Source of the DNA: Burkholderiales bacterium
GTDB taxonomy: Bacteria; Pseudomonadota; Gammaproteobacteria; Burkholderiales; JBILQJ01
Reading direction: 5' to 3'
Assembly (NCBI GenBank): GCA_044373325.1
Contig: JBILQJ010000005.1
Span: 656 to 64,655 of the forward strand
DNA length: 64,000 nt
The translations under genes were made by a program, and so were the position numbers. A model generated the notes under the pieces. The model searched no databases. It saw nothing but the letters and a program-made list of their open reading frames with translations, and was not told the origin of the DNA. Shown here in pieces: positions 1,012 to 63,900 of the stretch. The stretch's first letter is position 1, and every line of letters starts with the position of its first letter.

Positions 1012-1090
1012 GTCCCATCGCTGTATTTGCGGCCAACCTTTTCGATGATAACTCATCGTTCATTTAAAAAAGAAAGTAACAAGGTTTATT

Positions 1091-2569
1091 ATGACTTCAT
1101 TTCGTTCGCGGGCTCGCTCTGGGCAGCGCCGCCTTACACAAGAAACGCCAACCGAAGGCGAAGCGCTGATTTCGACCAAACCGTCTCAACCCAAATCGGA
1201 CAAACGTTCAGCGCCGTTCAATAATAACAATCCGAAAAAATCGTTTAAGGATAAAACGGCTCATGCTCCAACGAGAGAGTCGGCTGTTTCTCCAACTCGT
1301 ACCGAAGTGCCTGCGAGCCCACCGCAATTGGGGAGAGATGACCGCCCCATGAATTTAACGGGTGAAAAAACGCGCGCCCCACGCTCTATGCCTGCGGCCA
1401 ACGTTGCGGATTTAAAAAGCGATCGATTTACTTTATTTGCGTCTTGTCCGCGTGGTCTGGAAGGCGTGTTGGCCGAAGAATTAACGGCCTTGTCCATGCA
1501 GCAAGTTGAAAAAATACAAGGTGGCGGTGGCGTGCATTTTGTCGGTGGCCTAAATGACGTGATGCGTGCGAATTTACACAGTCGCGTGGCCAGCCGTATT
1601 TTGTTACAAGTGGCTGAAGGGGAATATCGCACCGAAGATGACATTTATCGCATGGCGCGCCAAGTCAAATGGGAAGACTGGTTCACGCCTGCAAAAACCA
1701 TACGCATGAAAGTCGATGCTATGACCCAACGCGTCAAAAGCACCGAATTCATTGCCTTGCGCATCAAAGATGCGGTTTGTGATTATTTCCGTCACATCGA
1801 TCAAATCCGCCCCAGCGTTGATAAACATTTTCCTGACATACGCGTGCATGCATTTGTGGGGGAATACGCGGTGAATATTTATTTGGATACCAGCGGCGAA
1901 GCCTTGTTTAAAAGAGGCTGGCGCGGACAAACGGGTGAAGCGCCCCTGCGTGAAAACTTGGCCGCAGGCATTTTGTTATTGTCGGGTTATAACGGCGAGC
2001 AAAGTTTATTTGACCCCATGTGCGGCAGTGGTTCTATTTTGATTGAAGGCGCAATGATTGCGTTGAATATTGCCCCTGGCTTGCAGCGTTCGTTTGGTTT
2101 TGAAAAATTTAATGCTTTTGATGCCGCCGCTTGGCAGGGGCACAAAACAGCCGCCAAACAAGCGGAATATGATTATTTGGCCAAGCCCATTCGTGGCTCG
2201 GATCATCTTGGGCATTTGATTGAAGTGGCAAATGTTAACGCTCTAAAAGCAGGTATTGATGATGCGGTTGAATGGGGTATTGCTGATGCGCTTACGACGA
2301 AAGCCTTTGATGACAACGGCATGCTGGTGAGTAATCCGCCATACGGCGTGCGTTTGGAAGAGGTCGCTACCTTGGCCGCACTTTACCCTCAAATGGGGAC
2401 GTGGCTTAAGCGGGAATTTGCTGGTTGGTCTGTACATTTGTTAACGTCAGATCAGGGCATACAGCGCGGTTTGCGCTTGCGTGAAAAAAGAAAAGACAAG
2501 CTTTTTAACGGAGCATTGCCTTGTCATTTGTATCATTTTGAGATGGTTGCAGGTTCTAACCGCGATTAA
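1091..2569 (+). CDS. rlmL: THUMP-domain rRNA m2G methyltransferase (RlmL-like)
   Basis: THUMP domain, LDTSGEALFKRGWR, APLRENLAAG, DPMCGSG, NPPYG; about 110-aa low-complexity N-terminal extension. Confidence 0.85.
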   Translation: MTSFRSRARSGQRRLTQETPTEGEALISTKPSQPKSDKRSAPFNNNNPKKSFKDKTAHAPTRESAVSPTRTEVPASPPQLGRDDRPMNLTGEKTRAPRSMPAANVADLKSDRFTLFASCPRGLEGVLAEELTALSMQQVEKIQGGGGVHFVGGLNDVMRANLHSRVASRILLQVAEGEYRTEDDIYRMARQVKWEDWFTPAKTIRMKVDAMTQRVKSTEFIALRIKDAVCDYFRHIDQIRPSVDKHFPDIRVHAFVGEYAVNIYLDTSGEALFKRGWRGQTGEAPLRENLAAGILLLSGYNGEQSLFDPMCGSGSILIEGAMIALNIAPGLQRSFGFEKFNAFDAAAWQGHKTAAKQAEYDYLAKPIRGSDHLGHLIEVANVNALKAGIDDAVEWGIADALTTKAFDDNGMLVSNPPYGVRLEEVATLAALYPQMGTWLKREFAGWSVHLLTSDQGIQRGLRLREKRKDKLFNGALPCHLYHFEMVAGSNRD

Positions 2570-3763: not shown

Positions 3764-3813
3764 TTGCGGCCAACCTTTTTCGCTGAATATCTCCCGCAAA
3801 AGGTTGGCCGCAA
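3764..3813. terminator. Inverted motif pair (hairpin) downstream of speB
   Basis: TTGCGGCCAACCTTTT 3764-3779 / AAAAGGTTGGCCGCAA 3798-3813. Confidence 0.75.
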
Positions 3814-5497: not shown

Positions 5498-5747
5498 GGC
5501 AGAGTTTCCTTTACAAAGGTCATTTAAAAGGCGCTATTGTACGGAAAAATCACTCGTTTGGGGGTTAGTTTCATGTAAATCTCGACACAATCAAGGGGCT
5601 AGACACAAAAAACCTTGTCATTCTGGGTGAATTTTGTAACAATCAGAACCTTTTTATCCTGGCGGTCTCGCAAAGTTGTAGCCAATCTTTTGCGGCCAAC
5701 CTTTTATATTATTTTTCTTTTATTTTTAAGTCGTTTTAATCCAAATC

Positions 5748-8431: not shown

Positions 8432-8480
8432 TTGCGGCCAACCTTTTTCCTTGTTTTTAGGTAAAAAAGGTTGGCCGCAA
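8432..8480. terminator. Inverted motif pair after alaS
   Basis: TTGCGGCCAACCTTTT 8432-8447 / AAAAGGTTGGCCGCAA 8465-8480. Confidence 0.75.
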
Positions 8481-8550: not shown

Positions 8551-9963
8551 ATGACAGTACGTACCCGATTCGCACCAAGCCCAACTGGACTTTTACACAT
8601 AGGCGGTGTTCGCACGGCTTTGTTTTCATGGGCTTATGCAAAAAAAATGGGCGGTGAGTTTATTTTAAGAATAGAAGATACCGATTTGGTGCGTTCGACG
8701 GCCGAATCCAAATTAGCCATTTTAGATGGCATGGCTTGGGTTGGTTTGCAAGCTCAAGGCGAACCCATTTATCAAACGCAACGTTTTGCGCGTTACGCGG
8801 AAGTCTTGCAAAGCTTGCTGGACAGCGGTCATGCGTATTATTGCTATTCGACCAAAGCCGAATTGGATTTGGTGCGCGAAGCACAAGAAGCGGCAGGAGA
8901 AAAACCCCGTTATGACAGAACTTGGCGACCCGAAGCAGGGAAAATTTTGCCAGCCATCCCAGCCGATGCCACGCCTGTGGTGCGTTTCAAAAATCCGTTG
9001 ACAGGTGAAGTGGCTTGGGACGATGCCGTCAAAGGTCGCATCAGCATACAAAATGAAGAGTTAGACGATTTGGTGCTGGCACGAGGTGATGGCTCACCCA
9101 CTTATAATTTTTGTGTGGTGGTCGATGACAGCGACATGGGGATTACTCACGTTATACGCGGCGATGATCATGTGAATAACACGCCGCGACAAATTAATAT
9201 TTTGGCGGCTTTGGGTGTAAAAGCCCCCATTTATGCGCATTTGCCCATGATATTAAACGCCGATGGGCAAAAAATGTCTAAGCGCCGCGATGCGGTCAGC
9301 GTGGTGGATTTTGATGCCATGGGGATTTTGCCTGAAGCCATGTTGAATTATTTGGCGCGCTTGGGTTGGGGACACGGCGACGATGAAATTTTTACTTTAG
9401 ATCAATTTGTTGAATGGTTTACGCTCGAACACGTCAGCCCATCGCCCAGTCGGTTTGATTTGGAAAAATTGCGCTGGACGAACGCGCAGCACTTAAAATT
9501 AATGGACAATACCGAGCTAGCAAAGCGCTTGGCTGGGCGCTTGCCCATTCAAGTGTTCGAGAAAAGTCAAGCCGCTGATGCGCCTGATTTGGCGGCGGTG
9601 GTGGGTTTGGTCAAAGAAAGGGTGCAAGATTTGAATGCTTTGGCTTTGGAATGCGATTATTTTTATTGCCCCCGCACGCCAGAAACCGTTGAGGTCGAAA
9701 AACATTTGTCAATGGAAACTCGTGAACGGATGCAGCGTTTTGCGCAAAGGTTGGCCGCATTACCTGCTTGGAATGCGGTGGCCATTCACGAGCTTTTCAA
9801 ACCTTTTTGCGCGGAAGAAGGTATTAAAATGGGGCAGCTGGGTATGCCTTTGCGTTTGCTGGTGTGCGGCACAACGCAAACTCCTTCGGTGGATGAGGTG
9901 TTGGCCTTAATTGGCCAACCAGAAGTTTTGGCGCGTTTATCGCATACTTTGCAATTGTCATAA
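8551..9963 (+). CDS. gltX: Glutamate--tRNA ligase
   Basis: RFAPSPTG, HIGG, KMSKR. Confidence 0.98.
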   Translation: MTVRTRFAPSPTGLLHIGGVRTALFSWAYAKKMGGEFILRIEDTDLVRSTAESKLAILDGMAWVGLQAQGEPIYQTQRFARYAEVLQSLLDSGHAYYCYSTKAELDLVREAQEAAGEKPRYDRTWRPEAGKILPAIPADATPVVRFKNPLTGEVAWDDAVKGRISIQNEELDDLVLARGDGSPTYNFCVVVDDSDMGITHVIRGDDHVNNTPRQINILAALGVKAPIYAHLPMILNADGQKMSKRRDAVSVVDFDAMGILPEAMLNYLARLGWGHGDDEIFTLDQFVEWFTLEHVSPSPSRFDLEKLRWTNAQHLKLMDNTELAKRLAGRLPIQVFEKSQAADAPDLAAVVGLVKERVQDLNALALECDYFYCPRTPETVEVEKHLSMETRERMQRFAQRLAALPAWNAVAIHELFKPFCAEEGIKMGQLGMPLRLLVCGTTQTPSVDEVLALIGQPEVLARLSHTLQLS

Positions 9964-10076: not shown

Positions 10077-10736
10077 ATGATGGCTGCCGTACCTGATTTT
10101 CCTGAAAAAAAAGAGCATAAAAGCACCAAAAGTTATATGCAAAGACTGCGTGATTATTTGATTACAGGCTTGTTGATTTGGTTGCCAATTTCGCTCACCA
10201 TTTGGGTGGTGTCGACTTTAATTGGTTCTATGGATCGGTTTTTGTTGTTGTTGCCTGCGCATATGCAACCCAAAGCGCTGTTTGGTTTCGATATTCCGGG
10301 CTTGGGTGCTGTGTTGGTGGTGTTTTTAATTTTGGCAACGGGTTTGTTTGCGGCCAACGTTTTGGGTAAAAAACTGGTGTATGCCTTTGAATGGTTGATG
10401 TCCAGAACACCTGGCATCAAAGGCATTTACAACAGCATCAAACAAGTCAGCGACACCTTGTTATCGGATAGTGGCAATGCTTTTCGCGAAGCGGTGCTGG
10501 TGCAATTTCCTCACCCTGGTTGTTGGGCGATTGCTTTTGTGACGGGCAAACCCGCTGAATCGCTTAATCCTCATTTGGGCACAGAAGAATACGTCAGTGT
10601 TTATGTGCCAACCACCCCCAATCCAACAGGGGGATATTTTATTATGATTAAAAAATCAGACGTTCGCGTGTTGGACATGAGTGTCGATACAGCCTTGAAA
10701 TATATTATTTCTATGGGTGTGGTTACCCCAAACTGA
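10077..10736 (+). CDS. DUF502 family membrane protein
   Basis: Two N-terminal TM segments; VYVPTTPNPTGGY; ALKYIISMG. Confidence 0.88.
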   Translation: MMAAVPDFPEKKEHKSTKSYMQRLRDYLITGLLIWLPISLTIWVVSTLIGSMDRFLLLLPAHMQPKALFGFDIPGLGAVLVVFLILATGLFAANVLGKKLVYAFEWLMSRTPGIKGIYNSIKQVSDTLLSDSGNAFREAVLVQFPHPGCWAIAFVTGKPAESLNPHLGTEEYVSVYVPTTPNPTGGYFIMIKKSDVRVLDMSVDTALKYIISMGVVTPN

Positions 10737-11368: not shown

Positions 11369-11476
11369 CGCTCCTTGTTTGCTCAGTTTTTATCTGTTTT
11401 TCTTAAAAAGGTTGGCCGCAACCTTGTGGCCAACCTTTTTAAGAAAAAAGCGAAAAAAGCACATAACAAGGGGGCG
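11369..11476. terminator. Long hairpin built on a back-to-back motif pair
   Basis: TTTTTCTTAAAAAGGTTGGCCGCAA-CC-TTGTGGCCAACCTTTTTAAGAAAAA, plus outer CGCTCCTTGTT / AACAAGGGGGCG arms. Confidence 0.7.
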
Positions 11477-13313: not shown

Positions 13314-13421
13314 TTGAAAAACAAAAAAATCGGCCAATTTTTCAATGGTTCTTGAGAAATGGGTCGGTTTTTTTTGGCCAACCTTTTGCGGCCAACCTTT
13401 TGGGGTTTTATTGGGGGCTTT

Positions 13422-14196: not shown

Positions 14197-15558
14197 ATGA
14201 TGACTGCACAAGAACGGCTGTCTGTTAAAGGATTGGCCAGTTTGTATGCCCTGCGTATGTTGGGTTTGTTTTTGGTCTTACCTTTTTTGGCCTTGCACGC
14301 CCGCGACATGACAGGCAGCACGGGTTGGTTAGTGGGCTTGGCGATGGCCGCTTATGGATTAACGCAAGCCATTTTTCAGCTGCCGTTAGGCATTTTGGCC
14401 GACAAGGTTGGCCGCAAACCCATCATCGTTTTTGGTTTGGTTTTGTTTGCAATTGGTGGCGCGGTCGCGGGTTGGGCCAGCAATCATGATGCTTTATATG
14501 GCTTGATTCTTGGTCGTGCGTTGCAAGGCGCAGGGGCGATGAGCGCGGCGGTGACCGCCTTATTAGCCGACCAAACCAGCGAAGAAAATCGCACCAAAGC
14601 CATGGGCGCAATCGGCATGACGATAGGATTGACCTTTGCGGTGAGTTTGGCCATAGGCGCAAGCTTAGATACTTGGTTAGGCACAGGCGGTGTTTTTTAT
14701 TTAACGGCCTTGCTGTCTATTTTAGGCATAGGCGTGATCTTGTTTTATGTGCCACCTGCGCCGCCTTTGCCACGAAGTTCACAACATCATTTAAAAAGTC
14801 GCTTTGCGCGGGTCATCGCTCACCGCGAATTACTGCGCTTGAATTATGGCATTTTTGCGTTACACGCGGCACAAATGGCCATGTTTAGCATGGTGCCGTT
14901 TCTTTTGGTTGATCAATTACAGTTGGTTAAATCTGCGCATTGGCAAATTTATGTGCCCAGCGTGATGGTGGGCTTTGTGTTTATGATTCCGATTATTATT
15001 TTTAGCGAAAAAAAACGCTGTTTGAAATCGGTTTTTATGGCTGCCATCGGTTTGATTGCGGTCGCACAAGCCCTATTAGGCTTAATGCACCACAGTTTAT
15101 GGAGTTTCCTTTTTTCCATGAGCCTGTATTTTATTGCGTTTAATGTGTTAGAGGCGACTTTACCTTCGTTAGTGTCTAAAATTGCGCCGATAGACGCAAA
15201 AGCCACCGCGATGGGCGTGTATAATACTGCCCAGTCTTTGGGCTTGTTTGCGGGCGGGTTAATTGGAGGCATCGGTTATATTTATTACGGTTCGCTGGGC
15301 GTGACCTGCGTTAGTGTGCTGTTGTTGTTGAGTTGGTTGTTTTTGGCTGTTAATATGATAACGCCTCCGCCCGTGCGGACGATTTTTCGGCCTTTGCCGC
15401 CTCATTATGTCAATCAATTAGCCTTTTATACTGAAAAAATATTGGCCGTTGACGGCGTAAAAGAACTGTCTTTCAATCTCGATAAAACCGAAATTCAACT
15501 CAAAGTTTTACAAGATGGCTACGATGAGGCCAGTTTGAAGGCTTTATTATTGCCTTGA
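14197..15558 (+). CDS. MFS transporter (YajR-like)
   Basis: [11 protein letters not shown], motif [21 protein letters not shown]; lies upstream of ssb. Confidence 0.9.
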
Positions 15559-16148: not shown

Positions 16149-16202
16149 CACTTGCGGCCAACCTTTTTCTCTATTTTTAGGAAAAAAGGTTGGCCGCAAG
16201 TG
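16149..16202. terminator. Inverted motif pair between convergent ssb and metW
   Basis: CACTTGCGGCCAACCTTTTT / AAAAAGGTTGGCCGCAAGTG. Confidence 0.8.
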
Positions 16203-16840: not shown

Positions 16841-17350
16841 TTAATCTAAATTTATATCGAGCGACATAGACAAGACTTTTTGCGTTTGTGTTTGGCGATA
16901 ATCGGCCAGTTGACGCGCCAATTCGGGGCGATAAACGGCCAATTGAGCCACCGCAAACAAGGCCGCATTGACAGCACCCGCTTCGCCAATTGCAAACGTG
17001 GCCACAGGAATGCCTTTAGGCATTTGCACGATAGACAGCAAAGAATCTTCACCGCGCAAATATTTAGAAGGAACAGGCACGCCCAAAATAGGGACGGGCG
17101 TTTTTGCGGCCAACATACCAGGTAAATGAGCCGCGCCGCCCGCGCCAGCAATGATGGCTTTGAGACCACGCGATGCCGCTTTTTCGGCATATTCAAACAT
17201 TAAATCAGGGGTGCGGTGCGCAGAAACTACTTGGGCTTCAAAAGCCACGCCAAATTGTTTTAAAAGGTTGGCTGCGTGCTGCATCACAGGCCAATCGCTG
17301 TCGCTGCCCATGACGATGCCGATTTCTACTGTTGGACGATAGTCGAGCAT
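16841..17350 (-). CDS. purE: N5-CAIR mutase
   Basis: [32 protein letters not shown]. Confidence 0.97.
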
Positions 17351-20662: not shown

Positions 20663-20711
20663 TTGTGGCCAACCTTTTATCCCAAAAATAGGAGAAAAAG
20701 GTTGGCCGCAA
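20663..20711. terminator. Inverted motif pair between the convergent EamA gene and yqgF
   Basis: TTGTGGCCAACCTTTT / AAAAGGTTGGCCGCAA. Confidence 0.8.
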
Positions 20712-39284: not shown

Positions 39285-39345
39285 AGTAAAAAATATTGCG
39301 GCCAACCTTTTAATCATAAAAAAGTTGGCCGCAATATTTTTTACT
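39285..39345. terminator. Inverted motif pair between convergent ettA and nagE
   Basis: AGTAAAAAATATTGCGGCCAAC / GTTGGCCGCAATATTTTTTACT. Confidence 0.82.
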
Positions 39346-47212: not shown

Positions 47213-47266
47213 TTGCGGCCAACCTTTTTATGAATCTTTGCGTTCACAAAAAAAGGTTGGCCGCAA
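47213..47266. terminator. Inverted motif pair after ppnP
   Basis: TTGCGGCCAACCTTTTT / AAAAAGGTTGGCCGCAA. Confidence 0.78.
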
Positions 47267-48740: not shown

Positions 48741-48791
48741 TTTGCGGCCAACCTTTTATCCAAAAAACTGGGTAAAAAGGTTGGCCGCAAA
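48741..48791. terminator. Inverted motif pair between convergent cysS and the small ORF
   Basis: TTTGCGGCCAACCTTTT / AAAAGGTTGGCCGCAAA. Confidence 0.8.
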
Positions 48792-49011: not shown

Positions 49012-52000
49012 TTAAGAATGCGGCGGGGTGTTAACGGCGGCTTGCATATCGACTGACACGATGCGGCTCACACCTTGTTCTTGCATGGTCACGCCGATGA
49101 GTTGTTCGGCCATTTCCATGGTTAATCGGTTGTGGCTGATGTATAAAAATTGGGTGTGGGCGGACAGTTGTTTGACCAATTCACAAAACCGCGCCGTGTT
49201 GGCATCGTCCAAAGGGGCATCGACTTCGTCCAACAAGCAAAAAGGGGCTGGGTTGAGCGCAAACAGCGCAAACACCAAACTCAAGGCGGTGAGGGCTTTT
49301 TCGCCGCCCGACAACAAATGAATGCTGCTGTTTTTTTTGCCGGGTGGGTGCGCGATGAGTTGCATCCCTGCGTTCAATAAATCGTCATCGGTTAACACCA
49401 ATTGCGCCGAGCCGCCGCCAAATAAAGTTGGGAAAATCTCGCCCATTTTGGCATTCACGGCGGCAAAGGTGCTTTGCAATAGGGTGCGCGTTTCGGCATC
49501 GATTTTTTTGATGGCATCGGTGAGCATTTGGGTGGCCGCCGCCAAATCGTGCTGTTGCTCTTCATAATACAGCGCTTGCTTTTGCGTTTCTTCCAGTTCT
49601 AGCGCGGCGGCCAAATTGACCGCGCCAAAGTCGTCCAATTGTCTGGCCAAGCGGCTGATGTGCGCTGCCGTGGCGTTGGGATTGGCCAAACTAAGTGCTT
49701 CGGGCAAGTAGGCGCTTAGGTTGGCCGCGTCTAAACCCAATTGTTCCAAAGCCATTTGTTGGGCTTGGGCTTCTAAAGTGGCTTCTTGTATGCGCAGCAA
49801 TTGTTGCGTTTTTTTATCGTTGAGTTTAGGCACGGCCAACAGCAGCGCATGGTAGTTTTCTTGCGTCTGTTGGCTGTTTTGCTGGCCTTGTTCTTCAGCA
49901 TTGAGGCTGGCTGTCCAGTCGGCTTTGGCCTTTTCCCAAGCAAGGCGCAAAGCATCGATGGCTTCGGTTTGAGCGCTTGCGGCCAACCTTTTTTGCGCCG
50001 CGCTCAATTGGGCAAGTTGTTCATGGAGCGCGGTGGTTTTTTGCTGGTTTTGCGTGACGGCGTGGGTGGTGTATTTGAGGTCTTGTTCTAGCGTTTGCAG
50101 GGTGTGCTGGGCTTGTGTGCAGGTTTTTTCGGCGGCGTGCGCGGCCTGTTGTGCCAAGTTCAACGCTTGCTGGGCTTGCCCAACAGCCGCTTCGGCCACT
50201 GGCAAATCGTTGTCAATTTCGGATTCTAACAAACTGGACAATTGCCATTCTAAAGTTAAGATGCTGTCTTCATCGGCCAATAAAGTCGCTTCTAAATTGG
50301 CCATGTCGCTGGCGAATTCTTGCTGGCGTGTGTCGGCTTGCTGCTGCACCGATTGCAATTGCCAATGCGTTTTTTGGGCGAGTTGATGCGCTTGTTCAAG
50401 TTTCAATAACTCACTTTTTTGGCTGGCGAGGTTGGCACGTAAAGCATAGAGATGGTTTTTGGTGGCCGCCAATTTGGCTTCTGCTTGGCGCAGTGAGGTT
50501 TCGGCGTGGGTTTGTTGCTCTAAAATCAGCGCTTGTTTGGCACTTTGTTCTAAAATTTGCGCGGCTTCGGGCAATTGACTAAGGCCAAAACTGGTGCGAC
50601 TAACCCAAACTTGTTGTGGCGTGATGACGCATTCGCCAGCTTTGAGTTGGTCTTTTTGCGCCCAAGCCGCCTCAACCGTTTCCGCCACAAACACGCCTTG
50701 CATCTGGTCGGCCAAAAAATCGGCAAAATCGGCAGGCGCGTGCAGTTTTGACAACAAGCTGTTAGCTGGAAAAGGGCGCGTGGTGTTGTTCCTTTTTTTG
50801 TACAAATAAGGCACGTTGGGCGGCAAAGCCTTGACGGCTGCCGCGACTTGTTCGGCGCTTGCTTCTGGGGTTGGCGTGTAAAGTCGCGCCTGTATGTTCG
50901 CCCCCAAAATGGCGTTGGCCGCCGCTGCCCAAGGTGCTTCAACGCGCAATTGTTGCCATAAAGGTTGGCCGCAACGGGCATTTTGTGCGTCCCCATTTTT
51001 CGCCTGAGCGGGATCAGATGGCACAGAAAGGCTTTCCGCCGCCACCAAAAAAGCTTGGTTAATATGGCGTTGGTTGTTGATGTGATGCTCTGTTTTTTGG
51101 GCGGCAGCTACCTCGGCGAGGTCGATTTCTTGTTGGCTTTCGGCCTTGGCCAAGGCTCGTTCTAGCGCTTGGTATTGGCTTTGGGCGTTGAGGTAAGCGC
51201 TTTCACACGCCCAAGCATGTTGCGTTGCGGCCAACCTTTGAGTTGCATCGGGCAACGATTCCGCCCAAGTCCTTTGCGTTTGCACCAGTCGTTCGCGTTG
51301 TTGTTGGTGTACGCGCTGTTGTTGTTGGGCGTGTTCTAATTTTTGTTGACACAAAGCCGTTGTTTGGCGATGTGCTTGGAAGTGTTGTTGACGCGCGGCC
51401 AAGGTTTGCGTGGCGGTTTTGAGCGCCAATTCTAAATCGGGCAGCACTTCTTCTGTGGTGTCCAATGTTAATTGCGCCTCGGTCAGCGCCAATTCGGCCT
51501 CTGTTTTGGCATCGAGTAACACCGTTAATCGCGCTTGGACTTGGGTGGATTCGGCGGCCAATTCTGTTTTTTGATGTTCACAGGCGGCAAGGTTGGCCGC
51601 AAGTTGGCGCGCTTCTTTGTGTTGATAGTCGTTGGCCATTTCGGCTTTTACGAGTTCAGTGTGTGCCAGCGTGACGCGTTGTTGATGGCTTAGACTGTTT
51701 GCGGCCAACCCTTGTTGTGCCACTTTGAGTGCGCTTAATTCGCTCTCTAAAGCCCAACGATTGGTTTCTGCCGCGACCAATTCGGTTTCGATTTGCGCCA
51801 AAGCGCCTTGGGCTTCGGCCAAAGTCTCTTTGGCTTGTTCTTTTTTAAACAAGGCAAAAATCGTTTGCTGGTGTATCAAGGTTTTTTTGAGGCGCTGATA
51901 ATCGCCCGCAAGATTGGCTTGTTCGCTTAAAGTCGCCATTCTTTGCGTCAAAGTGAGCTGAATATCGCCCAAACGTGCCGTATTTTGGGCGGTTTCGCGT

Positions 52001-52931: not shown

Positions 52932-54842
52932 ATGTCACCTGTTTTTTTAAGTTTGCCTTTGAATTTGCCTAGGCCTGTTGGTTTATCTGCCGATGTTTAT
53001 GGCTTGGGTTGGTTAGCGCGGCAGGCGGGCTGTCGGATGTTAGTCATTGGTGGCCTTGGTTTGGGGTTAGGCTTGGGTTTAGGGTCTGCGAGCGCAGCGG
53101 ATGTGCCTGTTGCGCAAAATCCCGCATTCCAAAATTCAGCAGCCGAACGTGCGGCGGACGGATTTTTGCGCCAACAAGAACGCGATCGGCAGTTGCGCGA
53201 GGGTCAAGAACGTGCGCCTGATGTGCGGTTGGGGGCTGATGCGGCAGCGCAAAATGACGCGGCGGCGCGATTGCCCGAGGCCGAGGCGGATTGTGTTTTG
53301 ATACAGGCCATAGAATTGGTGGATGACTTTGTGTCTAAGCCTGTAGATTTTAGCTGGGCGATTTCGGCGGCGAATAAAACGGGGACGGGCGAGCGCGATA
53401 TGGCAGTGGGGCGGTGTTTGGGGTCGCAGGGCGTGAATTTGGTGATGCGGCGCATCCAAAATGGCTTGATTGCACGGGGTTTGGTGACGGCGCGGGTGTT
53501 GGCGGGCGAGCAAACGGCGCTGGATAAGGGCGTGTTGCGGTTGACGGTGTTGCCGGGGCGCATACGGCAGGTGCGTTTTGCGGACAATGGCGCAGAAGCC
53601 ACGGCGTTGATGAATCGCCGCCCTGCGCTGTGGAATGCATTTCCTTTTCAATCGGGCGATGTGCTGAATTTGCGCGACATCGAGCAGGCGATGGAGAATG
53701 TGAAGCGCGTTCCGACTTTGGCGGCCGATGTGCAAATTGTGCCAGCCGAAACCTTAGATGCCCAAGGTCGCCCCGGCAGACCGGGTGAAAGCGATGTGGT
53801 GATACAAACCCAGCAAAGTTTCCCCGTGCGTTTGAGTTTGTCGCTGGACAACAGTGGCAGCGAATCGACGGGCGTTTATCAAGGCGGCGCGACGGTGTCG
53901 TTTGATAATTGGTGGACGCTCAGTGATTTATTTTATGTGAATGTTGGCCGCAATATGGATGGGCAAAACGTGGACGAGGGCGGCACGAATTCCTACACGG
54001 TGCATTATTCGGTGCCATTTGGGGGCAGTTTGTTGACGGCGACGGCCAGCAAAAGCGGGTATTTTCAGACGGTGGCGGGCGCGAATCAGGCCTATGTTTA
54101 CCGTGGGGATAGCCAAAACAGTGAGCTGGAATTGTCTCGGGTGGTCTACCGCGACGGCGTGCGTAAAATCAGCGCGGCGGTTAAAGGCTGGCGGCGCGCG
54201 TCTCAAAATTTTATTGATGACACCGAAATTGAGGTGCAGCGTCGCCGAACAGCGGGCTGGGCGGCATCGATTTCGCACCGCGAATTTGTGGGGGCAGCCA
54301 CGCTGGACACCGACGTGACGTACAAACGGGCGACGGGTGCGCAAGACGCTTTGGCCGCGCCCGAGGCCTTGTTTGGGGAAGGGGCTTCTCGGCCGCAGTT
54401 GTGGCTGGCGTCGACTGAACTGAATGCGCCCTTTAAAGTGGGTGAGCAAGCTTGGCGTTACAACGCGGTGTTGCGAGGCCAGTGGAACGCCACGCCGTTA
54501 ATCGTACAAGATCGATTTTCTATTGGCGGACGCTATACGGTGCGGGGCTTTGATGGCCAGCAACAGTTATTGGGCGAGCGCGGGTTTACGGTGCGCAACG
54601 AATTAAACGTGGCTTTGGGCGGCAGTGGCCAGTGGGCGTATTTGGCGGCGGATTATGGCCAAGTGGGCGGTGACAGCACGGCCTTTTTGGTGGGCAAGCA
54701 ATTGAGCGGCGGCGGTTTGGGACTGCGCGGTGGTTGGCGCGGCGCGTCGTATGACGTGTTTTTGGGCATCCCATTTTATGCGCCTGCGGGATTTTCTACG
54801 GCAGGCAAAGTACTGGATTTTAATGTGAATTGGTCTTTTTAA
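52932..54842 (+). CDS. TpsB (ShlB/FhaC/CdiB) outer-membrane transporter
   Basis: POTRA region, LNLRDIEQ, LDNSG, IGGRYTVRGF, C-terminal WSF; start uncertain. Confidence 0.93.
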   Translation: MSPVFLSLPLNLPRPVGLSADVYGLGWLARQAGCRMLVIGGLGLGLGLGLGSASAADVPVAQNPAFQNSAAERAADGFLRQQERDRQLREGQERAPDVRLGADAAAQNDAAARLPEAEADCVLIQAIELVDDFVSKPVDFSWAISAANKTGTGERDMAVGRCLGSQGVNLVMRRIQNGLIARGLVTARVLAGEQTALDKGVLRLTVLPGRIRQVRFADNGAEATALMNRRPALWNAFPFQSGDVLNLRDIEQAMENVKRVPTLAADVQIVPAETLDAQGRPGRPGESDVVIQTQQSFPVRLSLSLDNSGSESTGVYQGGATVSFDNWWTLSDLFYVNVGRNMDGQNVDEGGTNSYTVHYSVPFGGSLLTATASKSGYFQTVAGANQAYVYRGDSQNSELELSRVVYRDGVRKISAAVKGWRRASQNFIDDTEIEVQRRRTAGWAASISHREFVGAATLDTDVTYKRATGAQDALAAPEALFGEGASRPQLWLASTELNAPFKVGEQAWRYNAVLRGQWNATPLIVQDRFSIGGRYTVRGFDGQQQLLGERGFTVRNELNVALGGSGQWAYLAADYGQVGGDSTAFLVGKQLSGGGLGLRGGWRGASYDVFLGIPFYAPAGFSTAGKVLDFNVNWSF

Positions 54843-54907: not shown

Positions 54908-57900
54908 ATGAACAAGCAACGGTTTCGGTTGGTGTTTAACAAAGTGCGTTCGGTGTTGATGGCGGTGGCGGAGATTACGGTCAGTTGTGTGGGCAAGGCG
55001 GCGGGCGAAACGCGGGGGTTGCTGGGCAAGGGTTTCGGGGCGGTTTCGGCTGCGGCCAAGGTTGTGGGGATTTTTGGTGCTGGCGGTTTTGCGGCGTTTC
55101 GGCCTGTGACGGCCTTCGTTTGGGTGGCTTTGGGCTTGGCTGTGGTGTCTGGTGGTGCTGCGCAAGCCCAGCCAGCCCAAATCCAATCAGCGCCAACTTC
55201 TTTGGTAAAGGCTTTGCCGATTAGCTGGTCAGCGAGCGCCACGGCTGCGCAGCAAGGGTTGGTGAAGCAAGGTTTGATGAGCAAAGGCGTTCCGCCGGGG
55301 ATTTGGGGCGAACGCTTAAAGACTTTGCCGCAGCGCGCCCGCGATGGTGCGCCAGCGGGGGTTAAGAGGCAAAATTGGCCTTTAAACGGACAATCTTTAA
55401 ATGTCAACGGGCAACCTGTGTATGGGCAAGCCATGAAGGGGCAATTGCCGATTTTGCCAGTGTTTTCAGGCGATAAGGGCGACAAAGGCGATGGGGTTCG
55501 GCATTTGATCAAAAGTGGTTTCCAGCTTTTGTGGCCGTGGACTGACGCTGACAAGCAAGGTGGTTCAGCGGCAGATCAAGAGGGGGATTCAAACGCTTCA
55601 AATGGTTCAAACGCTTCAAATGGCAATATTTCGCCAAGTCAAGCGGCTGGGGCAACACGGGCCAGCTCGGCTGGACAAGTCATCGCCGACCCAAACGCCC
55701 CTAAAAATCAACGCGCCACGGTGTTGGAAGCGGGCAACGGCGTGCCTGTCATCAACATTCAAACGCCCAGCGCGGCAGGCGTGTCGCGCAATGTTTACGG
55801 GGTTTTTGATGTGACGGCGGAAGGCGTGATTTTGAACAACAGCCGCACCAACACGCCGACGGTGTTGGGCGGTTGGGTGCAGGGCAATCCGTGGTTGGGG
55901 TTGGGGTCGGCGCGGGTGATTTTGAACGAAGTCAATTCGACCAACCCGAGTTTATTAAACGGTTATATTGAAGTGGCAGGCCAGCGCGCCGAAGTGATTA
56001 TCGCCAATCCTGCGGGCATTTCGTGCGATGGTTGCGGCTTTATTAACGCCAGTCGGGCGACCTTGACGACGGGTACGCCGCTGTTGGACGCAGGTCGGAT
56101 TTCGGGCTATCGCGTTGTCGATGGCGTGATCCAGATTTCAGGGCAAGGTTTGGACAGTCGCGGCGTTGATTTTACAGACGTTTTGGCGCGTCGCATCGCG
56201 GTGGACGGTGCGGTGAGCGCGGAGCGATTGACGCTGATTGCTGGCGTGAATGACATTGAGTTAACACAAGAAAGTGGCGTTTTGCCTGCGGTGTCCAGTT
56301 CGGCGCAGGCTGCGGCCAAGCTTGTTTCTGAATCCTTGCCCGAAGCCGAGCGCTGGGGCATAGACAGCACGGCGCTGGGCGGTATGACGGCGGGTCAAAT
56401 CACCTTGGTGGCGACCGAAGCAGGCGTTGGCGTGCGTCACGCGGGGACGATGTACGCGGGGGTGGGCGAGGTGCGCATCACGGCGAATGGCGATTTGGTG
56501 AACGCGGGCAGCATCAATGGCGGCGCGGTGGCGTTGAGCGCTTCGAATCGGCTCCAAAACAGCGGCAAAGTGTACGCTGAGGGCGACTTGGCCGTTCAGG
56601 CACAATTCATTGAAAATTCAAGTAAAACTGACAAATCCAACGCGGTGTTTGCGGCGCGCGGGTCGGCGAGCTTGACGGCTGGCGGTTCGGTGACGAGTTC
56701 GGGCTTGTTGGCGGCGGGTTTGCAAGCCGATGGCACGGTGCAGGGCGCGGATTTGGTGGTGTCAGCAGGCGAGGCGATTACGGCGACTGGTCAAAATTTA
56801 AGCGGCAATTCGCAACGTTGGGACGCGCCCAGCGTGAGTTTGGCGAACAGCACCACGCAAGCGCCCAGCGTGACGGTGACGGCGAGCGCGGGCGATGTGG
56901 ACGCGTCGGGCGCGACTTTGTCGGCGACGACTTTGAGCCTCAACAGTGCGCAAACGCTGCGCACGGACGGCGCGTCGGTGTCGGCGGAAACCTTGAATTT
57001 ACAGGCCAAAATCCTATCCAACGTGGGCGGAAGTTTGACCCAAACGGGCGACGGCGACATGGCTTTGGTGGCGACTGACAAGCTCGACAACACGAACGGC
57101 CTCATCGCCACGAATGCGGCCAACCTTGCGATACAAACGCAGCAGTTAATCAATCAAAGTAATGGCTTAAATGCAGAGGGCGAGCCGAACACGGCTCAAA
57201 TCCAACACGCAGGCACGGGCACGTTTAGCCTTGCGGCCACCGTTTTGGATGGCCAAAACGGCGAACTCATCAGCAACGGCGCGTTGAATTTGCAGGGCGA
57301 CGTGGTGAACATGGACGGCGCGTCTACCAGCGCCAAATCCTTGAATATAAAAACCAAAACCCTATCCAACGTGGGCGGCAGGCTCATCCAAACTGGCGAC
57401 GGCGATCAAACCTTGGTGGCCAGCGACAAACTCGACAACACCAACGGCCTCATCGCCACGAATGCGGCCAACTTTAGGCTAGAAACGCAGCAGTTAATCA
57501 ATCAAAGTAATGGCTTAAATGCAGAGGGCGAGCCGAACACGGCTCAAATCCAACACGCAGGCACGGGCGCGTTTGACCTTGCGGCCACCGTTTTGGATGG
57601 CCAAAACGGCGAACTCATCAGCAATGGCGCGTTGAATTTGCAGGGCGACGTGGTGAATTTGGACGGCGCGAACACCAGCGCCAAGCTGTTGAATATCCAC
57701 ACCAAAACCCTATCCAACGTGGGCGGCAGCCTCATCCAAACGGGCGACGGTGACATGAGTTTGGTGGCGACTGACAAGCTCGACAACACCAACGGCCTCA
57801 TCGCCACGAATGCGGCCAACCTTGCGATACAAACGCAACAGTTAATCAATCAAAGCAAAGGCTTAAATGCCGAAAACGAACCGAACACGGCTCAAATCCA

Positions 57901-60900
57901 ACACGCAGGCACGGGCGCGTTTAACCTTGCGGCCACCGTTTTGGAAGGCCAAAACGGCGAACTCATCAGCAACGGCGCGTTGAATTTACGGGGAGATTTC
58001 GTGAATTTTGACGGTGCCAGTACCAGCGCCAAATCCTTGAATATTAATAGTAAAACTCTGTCCAACGTGGGCGGCAGTTTGATACAAACGGGCGACGGCG
58101 ACATGGCTTTGGTGGCGACTGACCAGCTCGACAATACAAACGGCCTCATCGCGACCAATGCGGCCAACCTTGCGATACAAACGCAACAGTTAATCAATCA
58201 AAGCAATGGCTTAAACGCCGAAAACGAACCCAACACGGCTCAAATTCAACACGCAGGCACGGGCGAATTTACCCTTGCGGCCAAGCTTTTAGAAGGCCAA
58301 AATGGCAGCATCATCAGCAATGGCGCCTTGAATTTGCAGGGCGACGTGGTGAATTTGGACGGCGCGAACACCAGCGCCAAATCTTTGAATATCCACACCA
58401 AAACCCTATCCAACGTGGGCGGCCAACTTATCCAAACGGGTGATGGCGACCAAAGCTTGGTGGCGACTGACAAGCTCGACAACACCAACGGCCTCATCGC
58501 GACCAATGCGGCCAACCTTGCGATACAAACGCAGCAGTTAATTAATCAAAGCAATGGCTTAAATTCAGAGGGCGAGGCTAACACGGCTCAAATCCAACAC
58601 GCAGGCACGGGCAGTTTTACGCTTGCGGCCACCGTTTTGGACGGCCAAAACGGCAGTATTGTCAGCAACGGCGCATTGAATTTGCAGGGCGACGTGGTGA
58701 ATTTGGACGGCGCGTCTACCAGCGCCAAGTTGTTGAATATCAACACCAAAACCCTATCCAACGTGGGCGGCCAACTTATCCAAACGGGCGACGGCGACCA
58801 AAGCTTGGTGGCGACTGACAAGCTCGACAACACCAACGGCCTGATTGCCACGAATGCGGCCAACCTTGCGATACAAACGCAGCAGTTAATCAATCAAAGC
58901 AGTGGCTTAAATGCCGAAAACGAGCCGAACACGGCTCAAATCCAACACGCAGGCACGGGCGAATTTACGCTTGTGGCCAACGATTTAGAAGGCCAAAACG
59001 GCGACATTATTAGCAATGGCGCCTTGAATTTGCAGGGTGAGGTGGTGAATTTGGACGGTGCCAACACCAGCGCCAAAGGCTTGAATATTAATAGTAAAAC
59101 CTTGTCCAACGTGGGTGGTAGTTTGATACAAACGGGCACGGAAGCAGGCAGCATCACGGTGGCCGAGGGCTTGAATAATGCGCAAGGCGTGCTGGTGAGT
59201 AATGGCGATTTGGCGTTGGCTGTGGGCAGTTTAGACAACGCGGACGGGACGATACAAGCGGGCGGGTTGTTGGCTCAGGGCGAGGGCGAAGAGCCGATAG
59301 AATTGTTGGGCAATTTGACACTGACGGCGACGGGGTTGGTGAACAACGCGGGTGGCAGCGTATCGGCACAGGGAGAGGTAACGCTCAAGGCTGGGGTGCT
59401 GAACAATACGACAGAGGGGCGTTTATCGGCCAAAGAGGCGCTGACGGTGACGGTGGCGACGCTGGATAACACCGATGGTCAGTTGGTGGCGGGCAGTGAT
59501 TTGACGGTTCAGGCTGATGCAGTGAACAACACGCGCGGGGTGTTGGCGGCGGTGACAGGTTCGGCGACGATTAACGTACAAACCCGCCTTAACAACAGCG
59601 CTGGGCGGGTGGAAGCGGGTCAAGCTTTGAATCTCAATAGTTTGGGGTTAACTAACATAGATGGGGTGGTGACGGCGCAAACTGTGAATATTAACAGTCA
59701 ATTACAAGCGATAGACAACACGCGCGGTCAGTTGACGGCGACCGATTTGGCCATACGAAGTGGCGAATTTTTGAATGATGCGGGCTTGGTGTATGGGGTA
59801 TCGACGTTGGTTTTAAATACCAATGAACAAAGGTTGACGAATAAAAATTCGGGCGAAACGGGTGGTTTGATTGGCTTGGGTAGTGTGAATTTAACCACGG
59901 GCATTTTCGATAATCAAACGGGTTATGTGAGTGCAAACGCCCTCAACCTTAATAGCCGAGAGGTGTTGAATACTCAAGGGGTGTTGGTGAGTTTTGGTGA
60001 TTTGGCCATACAAACGGGTGATATGAATAACGTTGGCGGTCAACTTCAGGGGTTGGGGAACGTGACCTTGGGGGTGACGGGGATGCTGAATAATACGGGG
60101 GGGGTGTTGCGCGCAGGCGGCGGCTTGACCGCGACTGCGGCCAACCTTCTGAACACCAACACCAATGGCGAGAATCAAGGCATAGAAGGCCAAAATGTGA
60201 CATTGACGTCGGATTTTGTGGACAATCAAGCGGGCGCAATCCGTGCGAATACGAATGTTTCTGTGTTGAGTAATGGTACGGTGAATAACACAAGCGGCTT
60301 AATGAGCGCTGGCGAAGCCCTGCGCATTGCGAATGCGCCCGATTTGCGATTGGGGTATGGGTTGAACTTAATCAATACGAGCGGGACTTTGGTGGCTGGT
60401 GGTGAGCAAGGCGGCTCGGTGACGGTGAACAGCGCGAGTTTGAGTGGCGATGGGCGCATCATGAGCTCGGGTTTGGTGAGCGTGACGGTACAAAGTGATT
60501 TTACGAATACAGGTACATTGAGCGCGGCCGAAGTGTCTGTGCAAAGCAGCGGCACGTTGACGAATGAGGGCGTGATTTATGGGGATAATCGGGTCGATTT
60601 AACAGCGGCCATTATCAACATCAATGATAACGCGGCTTACAGCATAGAATCGAGTGGCATATTGAGTTTGCACGCGAGCGACAGGGTCAATAATTCGGGG
60701 ACTTTGAATGCGAGTGAGATGTGGATAGAGACATCCACGTTGAATAATACGGGTAAGATTTACGGCGATCATGTGGCGATTTCGGCGGGGACATTGAATA
60801 ACAGTGCGGTCATGGGTTTAGAAAATGGCATCGTAACCCGCCTAGGTGCGGTCATTGCTGCACGCAATCGTTTGGATATTGCGGCCAACGTCCTAAATAA

Positions 60901-63900
60901 TGAGCCTGACGCATTGATATTTAGTGGGGGCGATATGGTGATGGGCGGGGCTTTGGATGAGTCACATCATGCCACGGGGCAAGCGACCGAGGTGAACAAT
61001 CGCGGGGCTCGGATAGAAGCAATGGGCAATTTGACGATAGGTGCAACTACAATCAACAACACCAACTCTAATTTTACGACAGAGCAGGTGACGGTAGTAG
61101 AGCACATTTCTGAATATGTCACAGCCGATGGGCAACGTTACGCCATCGGTGCAGAGGGTGTATTTTTGGTTAAAAATCTGGTGGGTTATGAGAAAAATTT
61201 CGTCTATGGTGGCGGCGGAGATAATGGTAATGATGGCACTGATCATTACACTGCTGACGAGTTGAAGTTAGTCGTCGGGGGGGAATTTGTCCCGAATTCG
61301 ATTGACGGAATTTTCCCATCTGCTCCCCCATTTGATGGTAATTTTTTCCTAGATGGTAGTGGTCATTACATAGCGAAAGGGGAACTCGTTGGTGGGACTG
61401 CTTATGAGGTTTGGCAAGCAACTGAATTGACGCGAACTGTGACAGAAACCCAAATTAAAACGTCACAAGCAGGTCAAATTCTGTCGGGTGGTCACATGAC
61501 TTTGACGGGAAGAACTTTAAATAATCTACAAAGTGAAGTCATTGCAGGGGGACGGTTGACTGCCAACATCAGTTTGAATAATGAAGAAGCTGAAGGCGTT
61601 CGGACAATCAAAGAAGTGGGTAAGTTGACTTCTAGCAAAAAGGGTGGGGACAGAGATAATAGTTTTTTTTGTAACTCGAATATATTAGGGTGTACGTCAG
61701 GATCAATTTCTACAACAAGTGACGTCGATTATCTAGTCCCCTTGAATCAAGAGGGAAATACTTACAAGACTTACGACAATGTGACGGTCACCGCGAAGAC
61801 GGTGGACTCGAGCATTCCAGATCCTAACTTCACGTTAACCGCTTCACGTTACGAGGAAAATGCTGCTGGAAAGGTAAAAAATATAGATATTGATGTCGTA
61901 AAAGTGGTGAGTAAAGACGCTGCTAATGGGACAGGGGAGGTACAAGCTGCGATTTATCAAGGGGACGTTGAGACGCGTAAGTCTGAGTCTACTGTGCTCA
62001 GTGCGAAAAAAAGCGAGAGCCTCACTAACGTGGGCAGTGATCTCGCGGATGAAGTGTCTCAAGATTCGAGCCCAACCGTGATACCCTCAACCGAAATACC
62101 AAACGGCGGAGCTCAGTCTATCGATTTGAGTCGATTGGCGGCATCGGGAGCCGAGTCGGTGATACGCACAACGACGCTGGCATATCGTTTGCCTAACAAT
62201 GTACTCTATGGCCGCCCCTCCAACCCAGGCGCGGGTTATTTGGTGGAAACCGACCCTCAGTATGCGAATTACCGCAACTGGTTGAGTTCGGATTATTTGC
62301 TGAACGCGTTAAAATACGACCCTGCGCTGACGCAAAAACGTCTAGGTGATGGATTTTATGAACAAAAATTGATTAACGATCAGGTTTTGCAATTGACGGG
62401 ACGGCGCTTTTTGGACGGTTACCAATCGGACGAAGATCAATACCAAGCCTTAATGCAAAGCGGTGTCGCCTTTGCCGAAGCTTATCAATTGGTGCCGGGG
62501 GTGGCGCTGTCGGCGGCGCAAATGGCGCAGTTGACGCACGACATTGTTTGGTTGGTCGAAAAAACCATCACCTTGGCTGATGGCAGCACGGTACAGGCTT
62601 TGGTGCCACAGCTTTACGTGCATGTTCAGCCAGGCGAATTAAGTACTGGAGGGGCGTTGGTGTCGGGCAATCAAGTCATCATCAACGCATCGGGCAATGT
62701 CAACAATTACGGCACAATTGCGGGTCGCGAGTTGGTGTTGTTGACGGCAGACAACATCAACAACGTGGGCGGGCGTGTGACTGCGGCCAACGTTGGCCTC
62801 ACGGCGCGCACCGATGTGAACAATTTGGGTGGTCAGATTTCGGCCACTGATGTGTTGCAAATCAAAGCAGGACGGGATGTGAATGTGGTGACAACGACCA
62901 GCACACAAACGTCTACTCTGGGTAGCAATACCCAAGTTAACCGAGTGGCGGGGCTTTACGTGTCGGGCAATGCGGGACAAATACTGGTATCGGCGGGGAA
63001 TAACGTGAATTTGGTGGCTGCGGTGGTGGCCAATCAAGGCATAGGCAACACAGTCATCAGCGCAGGCAATAACGTCAATTTGAGCACGGTCACCGAAAGC
63101 CAGCAACAAAACGTGGTCTTTCGGGGACGCGGCGTTATTGAACAGTACAGCATGAACCTCAGTTCGGAAGTTGGCAGCGCGGTCATCGGCAACGGCAATG
63201 TATCGATTTCTGCAGGCAACGACATCAACGCCCGTGCGGCCAACGTTGGGGCAGGTGGTCAAATTCTTTTAGACGCAGGGCGCGACGTGAATTTAACGAC
63301 GGGCGTAGCGAGTTCAAGCAGCAGCAGCGCTTTAACCAGCGCAGGCAGCTACCGCACGAATCAAGAAATTCAGCATCAAGATATCGGCAGCAACCTTCAG
63401 GCGGGCAGCCACATTGTGATTAACGCAGGCAACGACATCAACGCCCGTGCCGCCAACATCGGGGCTGGTGGTCAAATTCGCTTAGACGCAGGACACGACG
63501 TGAATTTAACGACGGGTGTAGCGAGTTCAAGCAGCAGTAGCGCTTCAACCAGCAAAAATAATCGCCGCACGACTCAAGACATTCAGCGTCAAGACATCGG
63601 CAGCAACCTTCAGGCGGGCAGCCACATTGTCATCAAGGCAGGTAATGACGTGAACGCCAAAGCCGCAACGGTGTCCAGCGAGACTGGCATCGTGCTGGTA
63701 GACGCAAAGCGCGACATTAACATCATGGCAGGCGAGGCTTATGCCAGCTCGGCCAGCACGTCCAGCAGCACCAAAAAAGGCTTTTTGTCCAAAAAAACCA
63801 CGACGACAAGTGACTTTGTGAGCGACACCCAAGCGCTGGGCAGCACGTTCGATGGCAACCTCGTCAGCATGAAGGCAGGCAACGACTTGACGATAGTCGG

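Follow-up and report, generated by a model that had tools for sequence, protein, structure and literature searches.

A short asymmetric word, written in full as T-TGCGGCCAACCTT-TT, recurs throughout the 64-kb stretch of DNA analysed in this study (hereafter the window; G000:C83:656-64655) and throughout the genome of the Burkholderiales bacterium to which it belongs (G000; assembly GCA_044373325.1; 1,862,309 bases in 83 contigs, 46.2% GC), and this word is probably a DNA uptake sequence (DUS), that is, a self-DNA tag preferred by the transformation machinery. This reading is built on the genomic signature of the word, a set of DNA-import genes, the ComP-like fold of a minor pilin, and a pattern of dialects among related genera, all of which are shown below.

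Abundance and Extent of the Repeated Word

The 10-mer TGCGGCCAAC was found in 51 exact copies in the window, 31 on the plus strand and 20 on the minus strand, while the expected mean was 0.36 with a maximum of 3, and none of 100 dinucleotide shuffles reached 51. A preliminary description of the window had put the number at about 50 copies on both strands, far above chance, and every position that it listed was among the 51. The perfect 16-mer TTGCGGCCAACCTTTT was present 21 times in the window against 0.00 expected. The enrichment extended to the entire genome, as the preliminary description had anticipated: TGCGGCCAAC was the commonest 10-mer of G000, with 1474 copies in 1.86 Mb, and its observed-to-expected ratios were 134, 96, 75, and 32 under Markov models of orders 1, 2, 3, and 4, respectively, the higher orders being inflated through the word itself. 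The commonest 13-mer of G000, AAGGTTGGCCGCA, occurred in 1093 copies, and the density of the 13-base word was about one per 1.5–1.7 kb. The reversed control word had no copy in G000.

To define the extent of the word, a position table was compiled from 1471 sites of G000. Information was confined to the stretch from 1 base before the 10-mer to 5 bases after it, conservation ended at about 16 bases, and the flanks were weakly A/T-rich. There were 680 perfect 16-mers and 362 one-change variants in the genome, and the changes were mostly at positions 1, 15, and 16, or consisted of a single C-to-T variant at position 4. With the exception of this variant, positions 2–14 had at most 19 variant copies each. 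Since these positions are almost invariant, the constrained unit is the 13-mer TGCGGCCAACCTT. The C-to-T variant at position 4, TTGTGGCCAACCTTTT, was present in 74 copies, one of them at window positions 11424–11439, and all other core variants had 13 copies or fewer; it may represent a second dialect that is tolerated, or else a site prone to mutation, for example a methylated C.

Placement of the Word in the Genome

The orientation of the 13-mer in G000 was balanced, with 549 forward and 544 reverse copies, and single 13-mers showed no link with local GC skew (144/159 at positive skew and 72/63 at negative skew). The strands were likewise balanced in Vogesella indigofera DSM 3303 (G032; about 64% GC), a member of another family that carries the same word, where the counts were 12/10 over 100 kb and 51/69 over 500 kb. 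Replication polarity of the word, which the preliminary description had named as a point to be settled, was rejected on the basis of these balanced counts in both genomes and the lack of a relation with GC skew in G000. A replication-polarised element of chromosome architecture or a recombination signal, of the type of Chi or the FtsK-orienting polar sequences (KOPS), is thus exceedingly improbable.

Based on our own crude set of gene calls (1547 genes, 87.5% coding), 799 of the 1093 13-mers were intergenic, 278 lay inside genes, and 16 were at gene edges. The in-gene copies used all six frames, most often as ..AANL.. (125) and ..RLAA.. (72), which rules out a confinement of the word to intergenic elements, as had been considered in the preliminary description. 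About 630 copies (58%) were arranged in inverted pairs, namely 297–298 convergent and 17 divergent pairs, and 464 copies were single. The 297 convergent pairs, which comprise 594 copies, were located in convergent-gene regions in 116 cases (176 such regions exist), in tandem regions in 147 (of 792), and in divergent regions in 6 (of 187); the remaining ones were within gene calls (5) or at contig ends (23). In total, 263 of the 297 stood at gene 3′ ends. The mean fold energy of the pairs was −34.1 kcal/mol, compared with −9.0 kcal/mol for shuffles, and a T-run followed the hairpin on at least one strand in 174 of the 297 pairs.

These figures bear on the alternative that the word is a terminator or a hairpin cassette, similar to the repetitive extragenic palindromic (REP) elements, which spreads alone, whether through a transposase of its own, through gene conversion, or because termination is selected for, and which has nothing to do with uptake; the coding copies would then be by-products. 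The predominance of intergenic copies, the high proportion in inverted pairs, the stable hairpins at 3′ ends, and the T-runs all speak for such a cassette, and abundant intergenic hairpins at gene ends are a trait that the word shares with REP elements and bacterial interspersed mosaic elements (BIMEs). However, a hairpin requires self-complementarity and not one fixed 13-mer, one copy in four is inside a gene, with all six frames represented, the 464 unpaired copies make singles common, the unit is not palindromic, and nothing is conserved past about 16 bases. REP elements are expected to be extragenic and to be accompanied by a RAYT gene in the genome; no Y1/RAYT transposase (PF01797) was found in G000 or G032. 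Neither a transposase nor an integrase was found among the 44 open reading frames (ORFs) of the window that were scanned, a few small ORFs lying outside that scan, and to this extent the absence of a transposase noted in the preliminary description was confirmed. In Vogesella, where the word is equally abundant, copies were seldom paired (2 pairs among 22 13-mers in 100 kb of G032). The same terminator habit is described for the known DUS and for the uptake signal sequences (USS) of the Pasteurellaceae in the available text of a recent census (bioRxiv 10.1101/2025.10.24.684340). Taken together, these points make an independently spreading cassette an unlikely explanation of the word.

The word was spread very evenly over G000: among 331 bins of 5 kb, with a mean of 3.9 copies, only 9 were empty. 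The largest word-free gap, of 17.3 kb, was an aryl-polyene-like lipid cluster with genes for ketoacyl synthases, an ApeI-like dehydratase, a halogenase-like flavoprotein, and a lipid A acyltransferase-like protein, and the second largest, of 12.2 kb, was a polysaccharide cluster with 42% GC. Even spacing and the extreme conservation of 13 core positions would also be in keeping with a site for another sequence-specific DNA-binding protein (nucleoid, segregation, repair, or restriction-linked), kept dense for chromosome biology, and genus-specific variants would be expected in that case too. The two largest gaps are nevertheless accessory islands, and the co-occurrence of the word with ComP variants, described below, is not predicted by such a protein. 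Further, we know of no chromosome-biology system in which an asymmetric 13-mer recurs at intervals of about 1.7 kb, on either strand and without polarity. We therefore consider a role of this kind distinctly unlikely.

DNA-Import Genes and a ComP Candidate

The search for competence genes, which the preliminary description had put forward as a check, showed that G000 encodes one ComEC (an open frame of 646 amino acids), DprA, a ComEA-like protein of 146 amino acids, a single secretin (PilQ), PilB, and adjacent PilT and PilU, together with a candidate ComP-type minor pilin. The gene of this ComP candidate (G000:C10:3605-4033; 142 amino acids) lies outside the window, right after a FimT/GspH-like pilin gene, and a pair of the motif is located directly 3′ of it. 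The C10 pilin was the best match in G000 of the ComP-type pilin of G052, a genome rich in GCCGTCTGAA (28% over 129 amino acids, E 1.9e-10), and of the Vogesella counterpart (36%, E 3.5e-20). The reverse searches returned the same genes, so that the C10 pilin and the ComP-type pilin are reciprocal best matches. No full-length ComP match was found in G005, which showed no repeated word of this kind in the 120–140 kb counted.

The structural relationship was examined with an AlphaFold model of the C10 pilin, which had a predicted local distance difference test (pLDDT) score of 88 with an alignment of 11 rows. The top Foldseek hits of the model were ComP of N. meningitidis (5hz7; E 3e-6, TM 0.62) and ComP of N. 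subflava (2nba; E 5.5e-4); there was no other hit below 0.001, the next being PilV at 0.067. In an alignment of six ComP-type proteins, the motifs T..WP.LP and L.A and two cysteines were invariant. A sequence search with the G000 ComP returned seven close relatives, with 80–100% identity, and no distant ones; relatives with 80–97% identity are present in public data.

If the word is a DUS, the ComP-type minor pilin would sit in type IV pili and bind double-stranded DNA with the word, and the word would enhance uptake. Retraction by PilT/PilU would draw the DNA through the single PilQ secretin, ComEA would retain it in the periplasm, ComEC would send one strand to the cytoplasm, and DprA would pass this strand on to homologous recombination. 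Because tagged fragments would be taken up and recombined more often, the word would accumulate by molecular drive wherever it is tolerated: at gene ends in inverted pairs that serve as terminator hairpins as well, and in coding frames as single copies that give acceptable peptides (AANL, RLAA). Recently acquired DNA would be without it.

The word might also be a relic, built by uptake bias in an ancestor, with the system now dead in a reduced genome of 1.86 Mb. The small size of the genome and the lack of a relative of its family among the compared genomes would agree with such a history. On the other hand, the numbers of perfect 16-mers and one-change variants (680 vs. 362) are unlike decay, and the frames of ComP, ComEC, DprA, ComEA, PilQ, PilB, and PilT/U are all open, with no stops. 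A relic is thus very unlikely in our estimation.

Another pilin of G000, C20:4762-5202, was considered as the receptor, as it is the sole match in the genome above the cut-off of the Pfam family ComP_DUS (PF16732; 59.9 bits) and follows pilW- and pilX-like genes. This candidate was rejected because by sequence it resembles PilE-type pilins only (4noa, E 0.12) and no solved ComP, the reciprocal match being the C10 pilin instead. Of five related genomes searched with PF16732, four had 2–4 pilin hits each and one, G058, had none, and the top hits were not ComP; the family name alone is therefore not evidence.

Two further observations concern the pilins of G000. At C42:1765-4945, pilin queries matched at least five places within about 3.2 kb, which suggests that pilin genes or cassettes lie there in tandem, in a layout resembling that of pilE/pilS. 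FimT is reported to mediate DNA uptake in another bacterium (PMC8897410), and the C10 ComP homologue and its neighbouring FimT/GspH-like pilin may work together.

Carriers and Dialects among Related Genomes

To determine which other bacteria carry the word, we surveyed further genomes of the order to which G000 belongs; the surveys at the level of both family and order are samples, and the dialect logos were drawn from 80–500 kb per genome. Among 401 sampled genomes from 61 families, the 13-mer was abundant in only five, and all others had 0–3 copies; G026, one of the genomes sampled, had background counts only. The five were G000 itself, which was the sole member of its family (f1) and of its genus among the sampled genomes, and four Vogesella genomes, from a different family, with 960, 951, 907, and 288 copies. 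The preliminary description had proposed a naturally competent lineage with an undescribed self-DNA recognition signal. The lineage is not unique in this respect: the word is also found in Vogesella, and sister dialects occur in further genera of the Vogesella family.

Two genomes of family f53, in the same order as G000, were rich in the known Neisseriaceae word GCCGTCTGAA (1863 and 298 copies). This word had not been seen in the window by the preliminary description, and in the whole of G000 there were 2 copies. The AlaS of G000 was 64–65% identical to that of f53 and 68% identical to those of f6, f33, and f59. A quick tree of AlaS placed G000 beside G005 (f6) and this pair as the sister of a group that includes Vogesella's family, with the Neisseria-type family outside these groups; as a tree of one gene in which the rows of G058, G041, and G013 carried a wrong ORF frame, it is a hint only. 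In 120–140 kb of G005 and of G086, unbiased k-mer counts showed no repeated word of this kind.

In V. indigofera DSM 3303, the top 10-mer was GTTGGCCGCA, with 256 copies in 500 kb, and the consensus was cTTGCGGCCAACCTTg. The DprA proteins of V. fluminis, V. alkaliphila, and V. margarita were 94–95% identical to that of this strain, and that of V. urethralis was 71% identical. We then compared the 9-mer core CGGCCAACC with its reversed control in 68 genomes of Vogesella's family. The core was enriched 10- to 50-fold in all 17 Vogesella genomes (1428–2004 copies, with 1470 in V. fluminis and 2004 in V. urethralis), and in all 10 genomes of the genera g169, g170, g171, g173, and g174 (263–1196 copies). 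In a sixth genus, g92, a single genome out of 10 was enriched. Two further large genera, with 20 and 6 genomes, showed no enrichment, and a third showed a weak one; in Craterilacuibacter sinensis, Andreprevotia lacus, and Deefgea rivuli, it was at the control level. In a sample of 126 genomes of the order, CGGCCAACC stood out only in G000 (1303 vs. 0 for the control) and G032 (1638 vs. 33).

In unbiased k-mer counts of 80–140 kb samples, the leading word depended on the genus: it was TGCGGCCAAC for G000 and Vogesella, TTCGGCCAAC for five genera, and CTCGGCCAAC for one. The words form TG, TT, and CT dialects around a common core, CGGCCAAC, with TG being the dialect of G000 and Vogesella. The dialects were compared with the sequences of 21 ComP homologues. 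The seven from the TG dialect, one from G000 and six from Vogesella, have in common R-N-T-D, VLRA, and an insertion in the loop that follows WPxLP, and are without the DWLG insertion that was found in most TT and CT proteins; in a quick ComP tree, these seven rows were on one side of one branch.

The lineage of G000 and Vogesella are 18 points of GC apart and belong to different families, and they have the same 13-base dialect and shared ComP features. Either the specificity was kept across family-level divergence, or the receptor moved sideways; if this is true, the two could in either case exchange genes by transformation. On balance, we lean slightly towards the view that ComP-based recognition of self-DNA is older and wider than the Neisseriaceae, with a second clan built on the core CGGCCAAC and not on CTG, comprising at least three dialects (TG, TT, and CT). 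This clan would extend over Vogesella, a number of its sister genera, and one isolated deep lineage, and its reader would be a short ComP that lacks the Cys-rich loop.

Several individual genomes deviated from their genera. G135, the enriched genome of g92, had 766 copies of the core in the TT dialect, and the other nine had about 100–130; this genome may have been assigned to the wrong genus, or a gain or loss of the system may be recent. G338, a Vogesella, had 1428 copies of the 9-mer core and only 288 of the 13-mer, along with a divergent ComP, which suggests, as far as the sequences go, a sub-dialect within Vogesella with other flanks. All 20 genomes of genus g73, in Vogesella's family, with sizes of 4–5.7 Mb, had a ComP-like match (E 1e-8 to 1e-20), and the core was not enriched in them. 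In viral contigs, 79 of the 80 matches listed were single, at chance level, and one contig had two.

Comparison with Known Uptake Systems

The latest census of DUS, in its available text, holds 11 dialects (8 plus 3), all from Neisseriaceae and all with CTG at positions 6–8 (bioRxiv 10.1101/2025.10.24.684340), and the CTG core is reported there and in the available part of an earlier study to be essential in Neisseria (PMC3630211). The nearest described dialect in the same census text is vitDUS, AGCGGCCTGTAA, of Vitreoscilla massiliensis, which has the hexamer GCGGCC in common with the word of G000. Like the DUS of the Neisseriaceae, the present word occurs at a matching number of copies per kb, equally on both strands, in coding and intergenic positions and as inverted terminator pairs, and it has genus-level dialects on an invariant core, a ComP homologue with a modelled ComP fold, and hosts in the same bacterial order. 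It differs from them in having CAA in place of CTG, a constrained stretch of 13 bases, and hosts outside the Neisseriaceae (a lone family, and Vogesella with its relatives). By analogy, the word would work like a DUS, one that departs from the CTG rule and from the Neisseriaceae and that is paired with a shorter ComP.

The USS of the Pasteurellaceae has the same sort of genomic signature, including weak AT-rich flanks near the core; the word itself is unrelated, and the host order is a different one, G000 belonging to the order with the Neisseria-type genomes. The predicted USS receptor of the Pasteurellaceae is another minor pilin, PpdA/ComN, according to the available text of PMC12616744. 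Neither Chromobacterium nor Vogesella was mentioned in the available text of recent papers on ComP and on the USS receptor, including PMC12616744.

Frye et al. (2013; PMC3630211), in the part of the paper available, reported that no abundant repeat was an obvious DUS in Laribacter, Lutiella, Pseudogulbenkiania, and two Chromobacterium genomes, that BLAST did not reveal a ComP in C. violaceum, and that the DUS system arose after the split from C. violaceum. In our literature searches, no paper was found that pairs the word or its dialects with the term "uptake sequence", or Vogesella with uptake sequences; nothing relevant was found on Vogesella and natural transformation, and there was no paper on Chromobacteriaceae competence among the matches listed. 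The preliminary description had called the signal undescribed, and as far as the searched literature goes this holds; Table S1D of Frye et al., which gives the top 10-mers of Laribacter, Lutiella, Pseudogulbenkiania, and Chromobacterium and was outside that search, may already show the TT word without a DUS label.

Several results weigh against a DUS and have to be set beside those given above. The CTG core is absent, the consensus TTGCGGCCAACCTT reading CAA after GCGGCC, and it is also absent from the sister dialects TTCGGCCAAC and CTCGGCCAAC of Vogesella's family. The same competence genes were present in most control genomes without known sequence-specific uptake, and the gene set therefore shows only that nothing needed is missing. 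ComP-like genes were found in 63 of the 68 genomes of Vogesella's family, including those of unenriched genera, so that their presence alone does not predict the word. The C10 pilin itself reached 18.3 bits on PF16732, below the cut-off of 27.3, and is without the extra Cys-rich insertion (second disulphide) of the Neisseria proteins. The branch that unites the TG-dialect ComPs was weakly supported (72), and G000 was on a very long branch. With regard to placement, 73% of the 13-mers in G000 are intergenic and 58% are in hairpin pairs, and terminator-linked spread is a contributor to the picture in this genome. Not all word-free gaps are accessory islands: the third largest, which measures 9.4 kb (G000:C73:5839-15282) and has 39% GC compared with 46% for the genome as a whole, coincides with the core pilMNOPQ-ponA region, which contains the PilQ secretin gene, the names pilMNOP being assigned from the length and order of five other same-strand ORFs and ponA, a divergent ORF of 831 amino acids, by gene order only. 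Finally, no paper was found on competence or biased uptake in this lineage or in Vogesella.

To our knowledge, only two bacterial families are known to take up DNA in a sequence-specific manner, and whether this trait is convergent or ancient in origin is a question to which the lineages described here speak. If the word is a DUS, they would be a third set of lineages and a natural experiment on the co-evolution of receptor and word, the value of which lies in a ComP homologue, a word that keeps GCGGCC and replaces the "essential" CTG, and clear genus-level dialects; the finding would also run counter to the literature, in which the origin of the system is dated after the separation from Chromobacterium. 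As Vogesella is free-living and cultivable, uptake, ComP binding, and dialect swaps are directly testable, and engineering of these bacteria may become easy with donor DNA that carries the word.

Copies of the Word in the 64-kb Window

The window is core chromosome, with alaS, gltX, aspS, ssb, purE, ruvX, dapF, dnaN, dnaA, yidC, a dsbC-like gene, a phosphotransferase system (PTS), smc, and a two-partner secretion pair. The 51 copies span positions 1027..63244 on both strands. Eighteen of them formed nine inverted pairs, all between ORFs and mostly where gene ends converge, and 27 were in ORFs, in line with the single copies in genes and pairs at gene ends of the preliminary description; the other six were singles that lay either between ORFs or on the border of one, and two of these had a degenerate partner.

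Five of the inverted pairs lay between convergent genes: 16152..16199, between ssb (15555-16115, plus strand) and metW (16228-16827, minus strand); 32387..32434, between the dsbC-like gene (31281-32330, plus) and a hydrolase gene (32461-33084, minus); 35692..35738, between a patatin-like gene (34771-35688, plus) and a SpoU methylase gene (35755-36504, minus); 39296..39333, a pair with a short loop between genes for an ABC-F ATPase (37596-39263, plus) and PTS IIBC (39390-41213, minus), the second arm of which has one base changed outside the 10-mer; and 48742..48790, between an ORF (47312-48688, plus) and smc (49012-52557, minus). The hairpin at 3764..3813 was located between the minus-strand genes of an aminotransferase (2566-3666) and an arginase-family protein (3828-4787), and the pair at 8432..8480 just 3′ of alaS (5748-8411), ahead of gltX (8551-9963). 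The remaining two pairs were at the 3′ end of dnaN (25724..25770; gene at 25778-26881, minus) and between the plus-strand ORFs 46885-47199 and 47312-48688 (47213..47266).

The single intergenic copies on the plus strand were at 1027..1042, between a sugar transferase gene (409-1011) and an rlmKL-like gene (1091-2569); at 5690..5705, in the divergent region ahead of alaS; and at 31203..31215, after yidC (29443-31155). On the minus strand, a copy at 20696..20711 lay between an ORF (19773-20636, plus) and the convergent ruvX (20729-21205, minus). At 11406..11445, after a phosphoribosyltransferase gene, a perfect minus-strand copy faced a degenerate partner with the C-to-T variant, TTGTGGCCAACC, and at 13366..13401, at the boundary of aspS and the 5-formyltetrahydrofolate cyclo-ligase gene, a perfect plus-strand copy was preceded by a truncated direct copy, GGCCAACCTTTT.

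Within ORFs, plus-strand copies were found in the rlmKL-like methyltransferase gene (1393..1402, a variant reading ...AACGTT), a DUF502 gene (10349..10358), purE, which encodes 5-aminoimidazole ribonucleotide carboxylase and is itself on the minus strand (17105..17114), and a gene for a pyridine-nucleotide disulphide oxidoreductase (23105..23114). Minus-strand copies were in gltX (9750..9759), a gene of a major facilitator superfamily transporter (14407..14416), dnaA (27910..27919), a small ORF at 28830-29168 that was outside the family-library scan (29117..29126), the patatin-like phospholipase gene (34965..34974), and the tpsB gene (53943..53952), and two were in the fused PTS IIA-HPr-enzyme I gene at 41377-43902 (42253 and 43578; 42253..43587). 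The smc gene had five copies (49978..51709), at 49978, 51226, and 51700 on the plus strand and at 50964 and 51592 on the minus strand. The tpsA-like gene had six plus-strand copies with a spacing of 348 bp (57115..58864), in frame as N-A-A-N-L/F, and four further plus-strand copies at 60136, 60880, 62782, and 63235 (60136..63244). Because the former six are one per unit of a 348-bp tandem repeat, they represent one amplified event among the 27 ORF copies and are not independent.

Two regions of the window merit description apart from the word. Between 25778 and 31155, dnaN, dnaA, a small ORF, and yidC are grouped as in a typical replication origin; despite this origin-like group, GC skew was positive through the entire window, without a sign change, and the replication origin may lie elsewhere, or GC skew may be uninformative in the window. 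Positions 52932-64000 are occupied by the two-partner secretion (TPS) pair, consisting of tpsB (ShlB/FhaC type, with POTRA domains) and the gene of a tpsA-like exoprotein. The latter has more than 3031 codons and runs past the window end; it encodes an ESPR signal, a TPS domain, and haemagglutinin repeats, and contains a 348-bp tandem repeat of 6.1 units (57006-59141) and a 213-bp repeat of 2.1 units (63212-63658).

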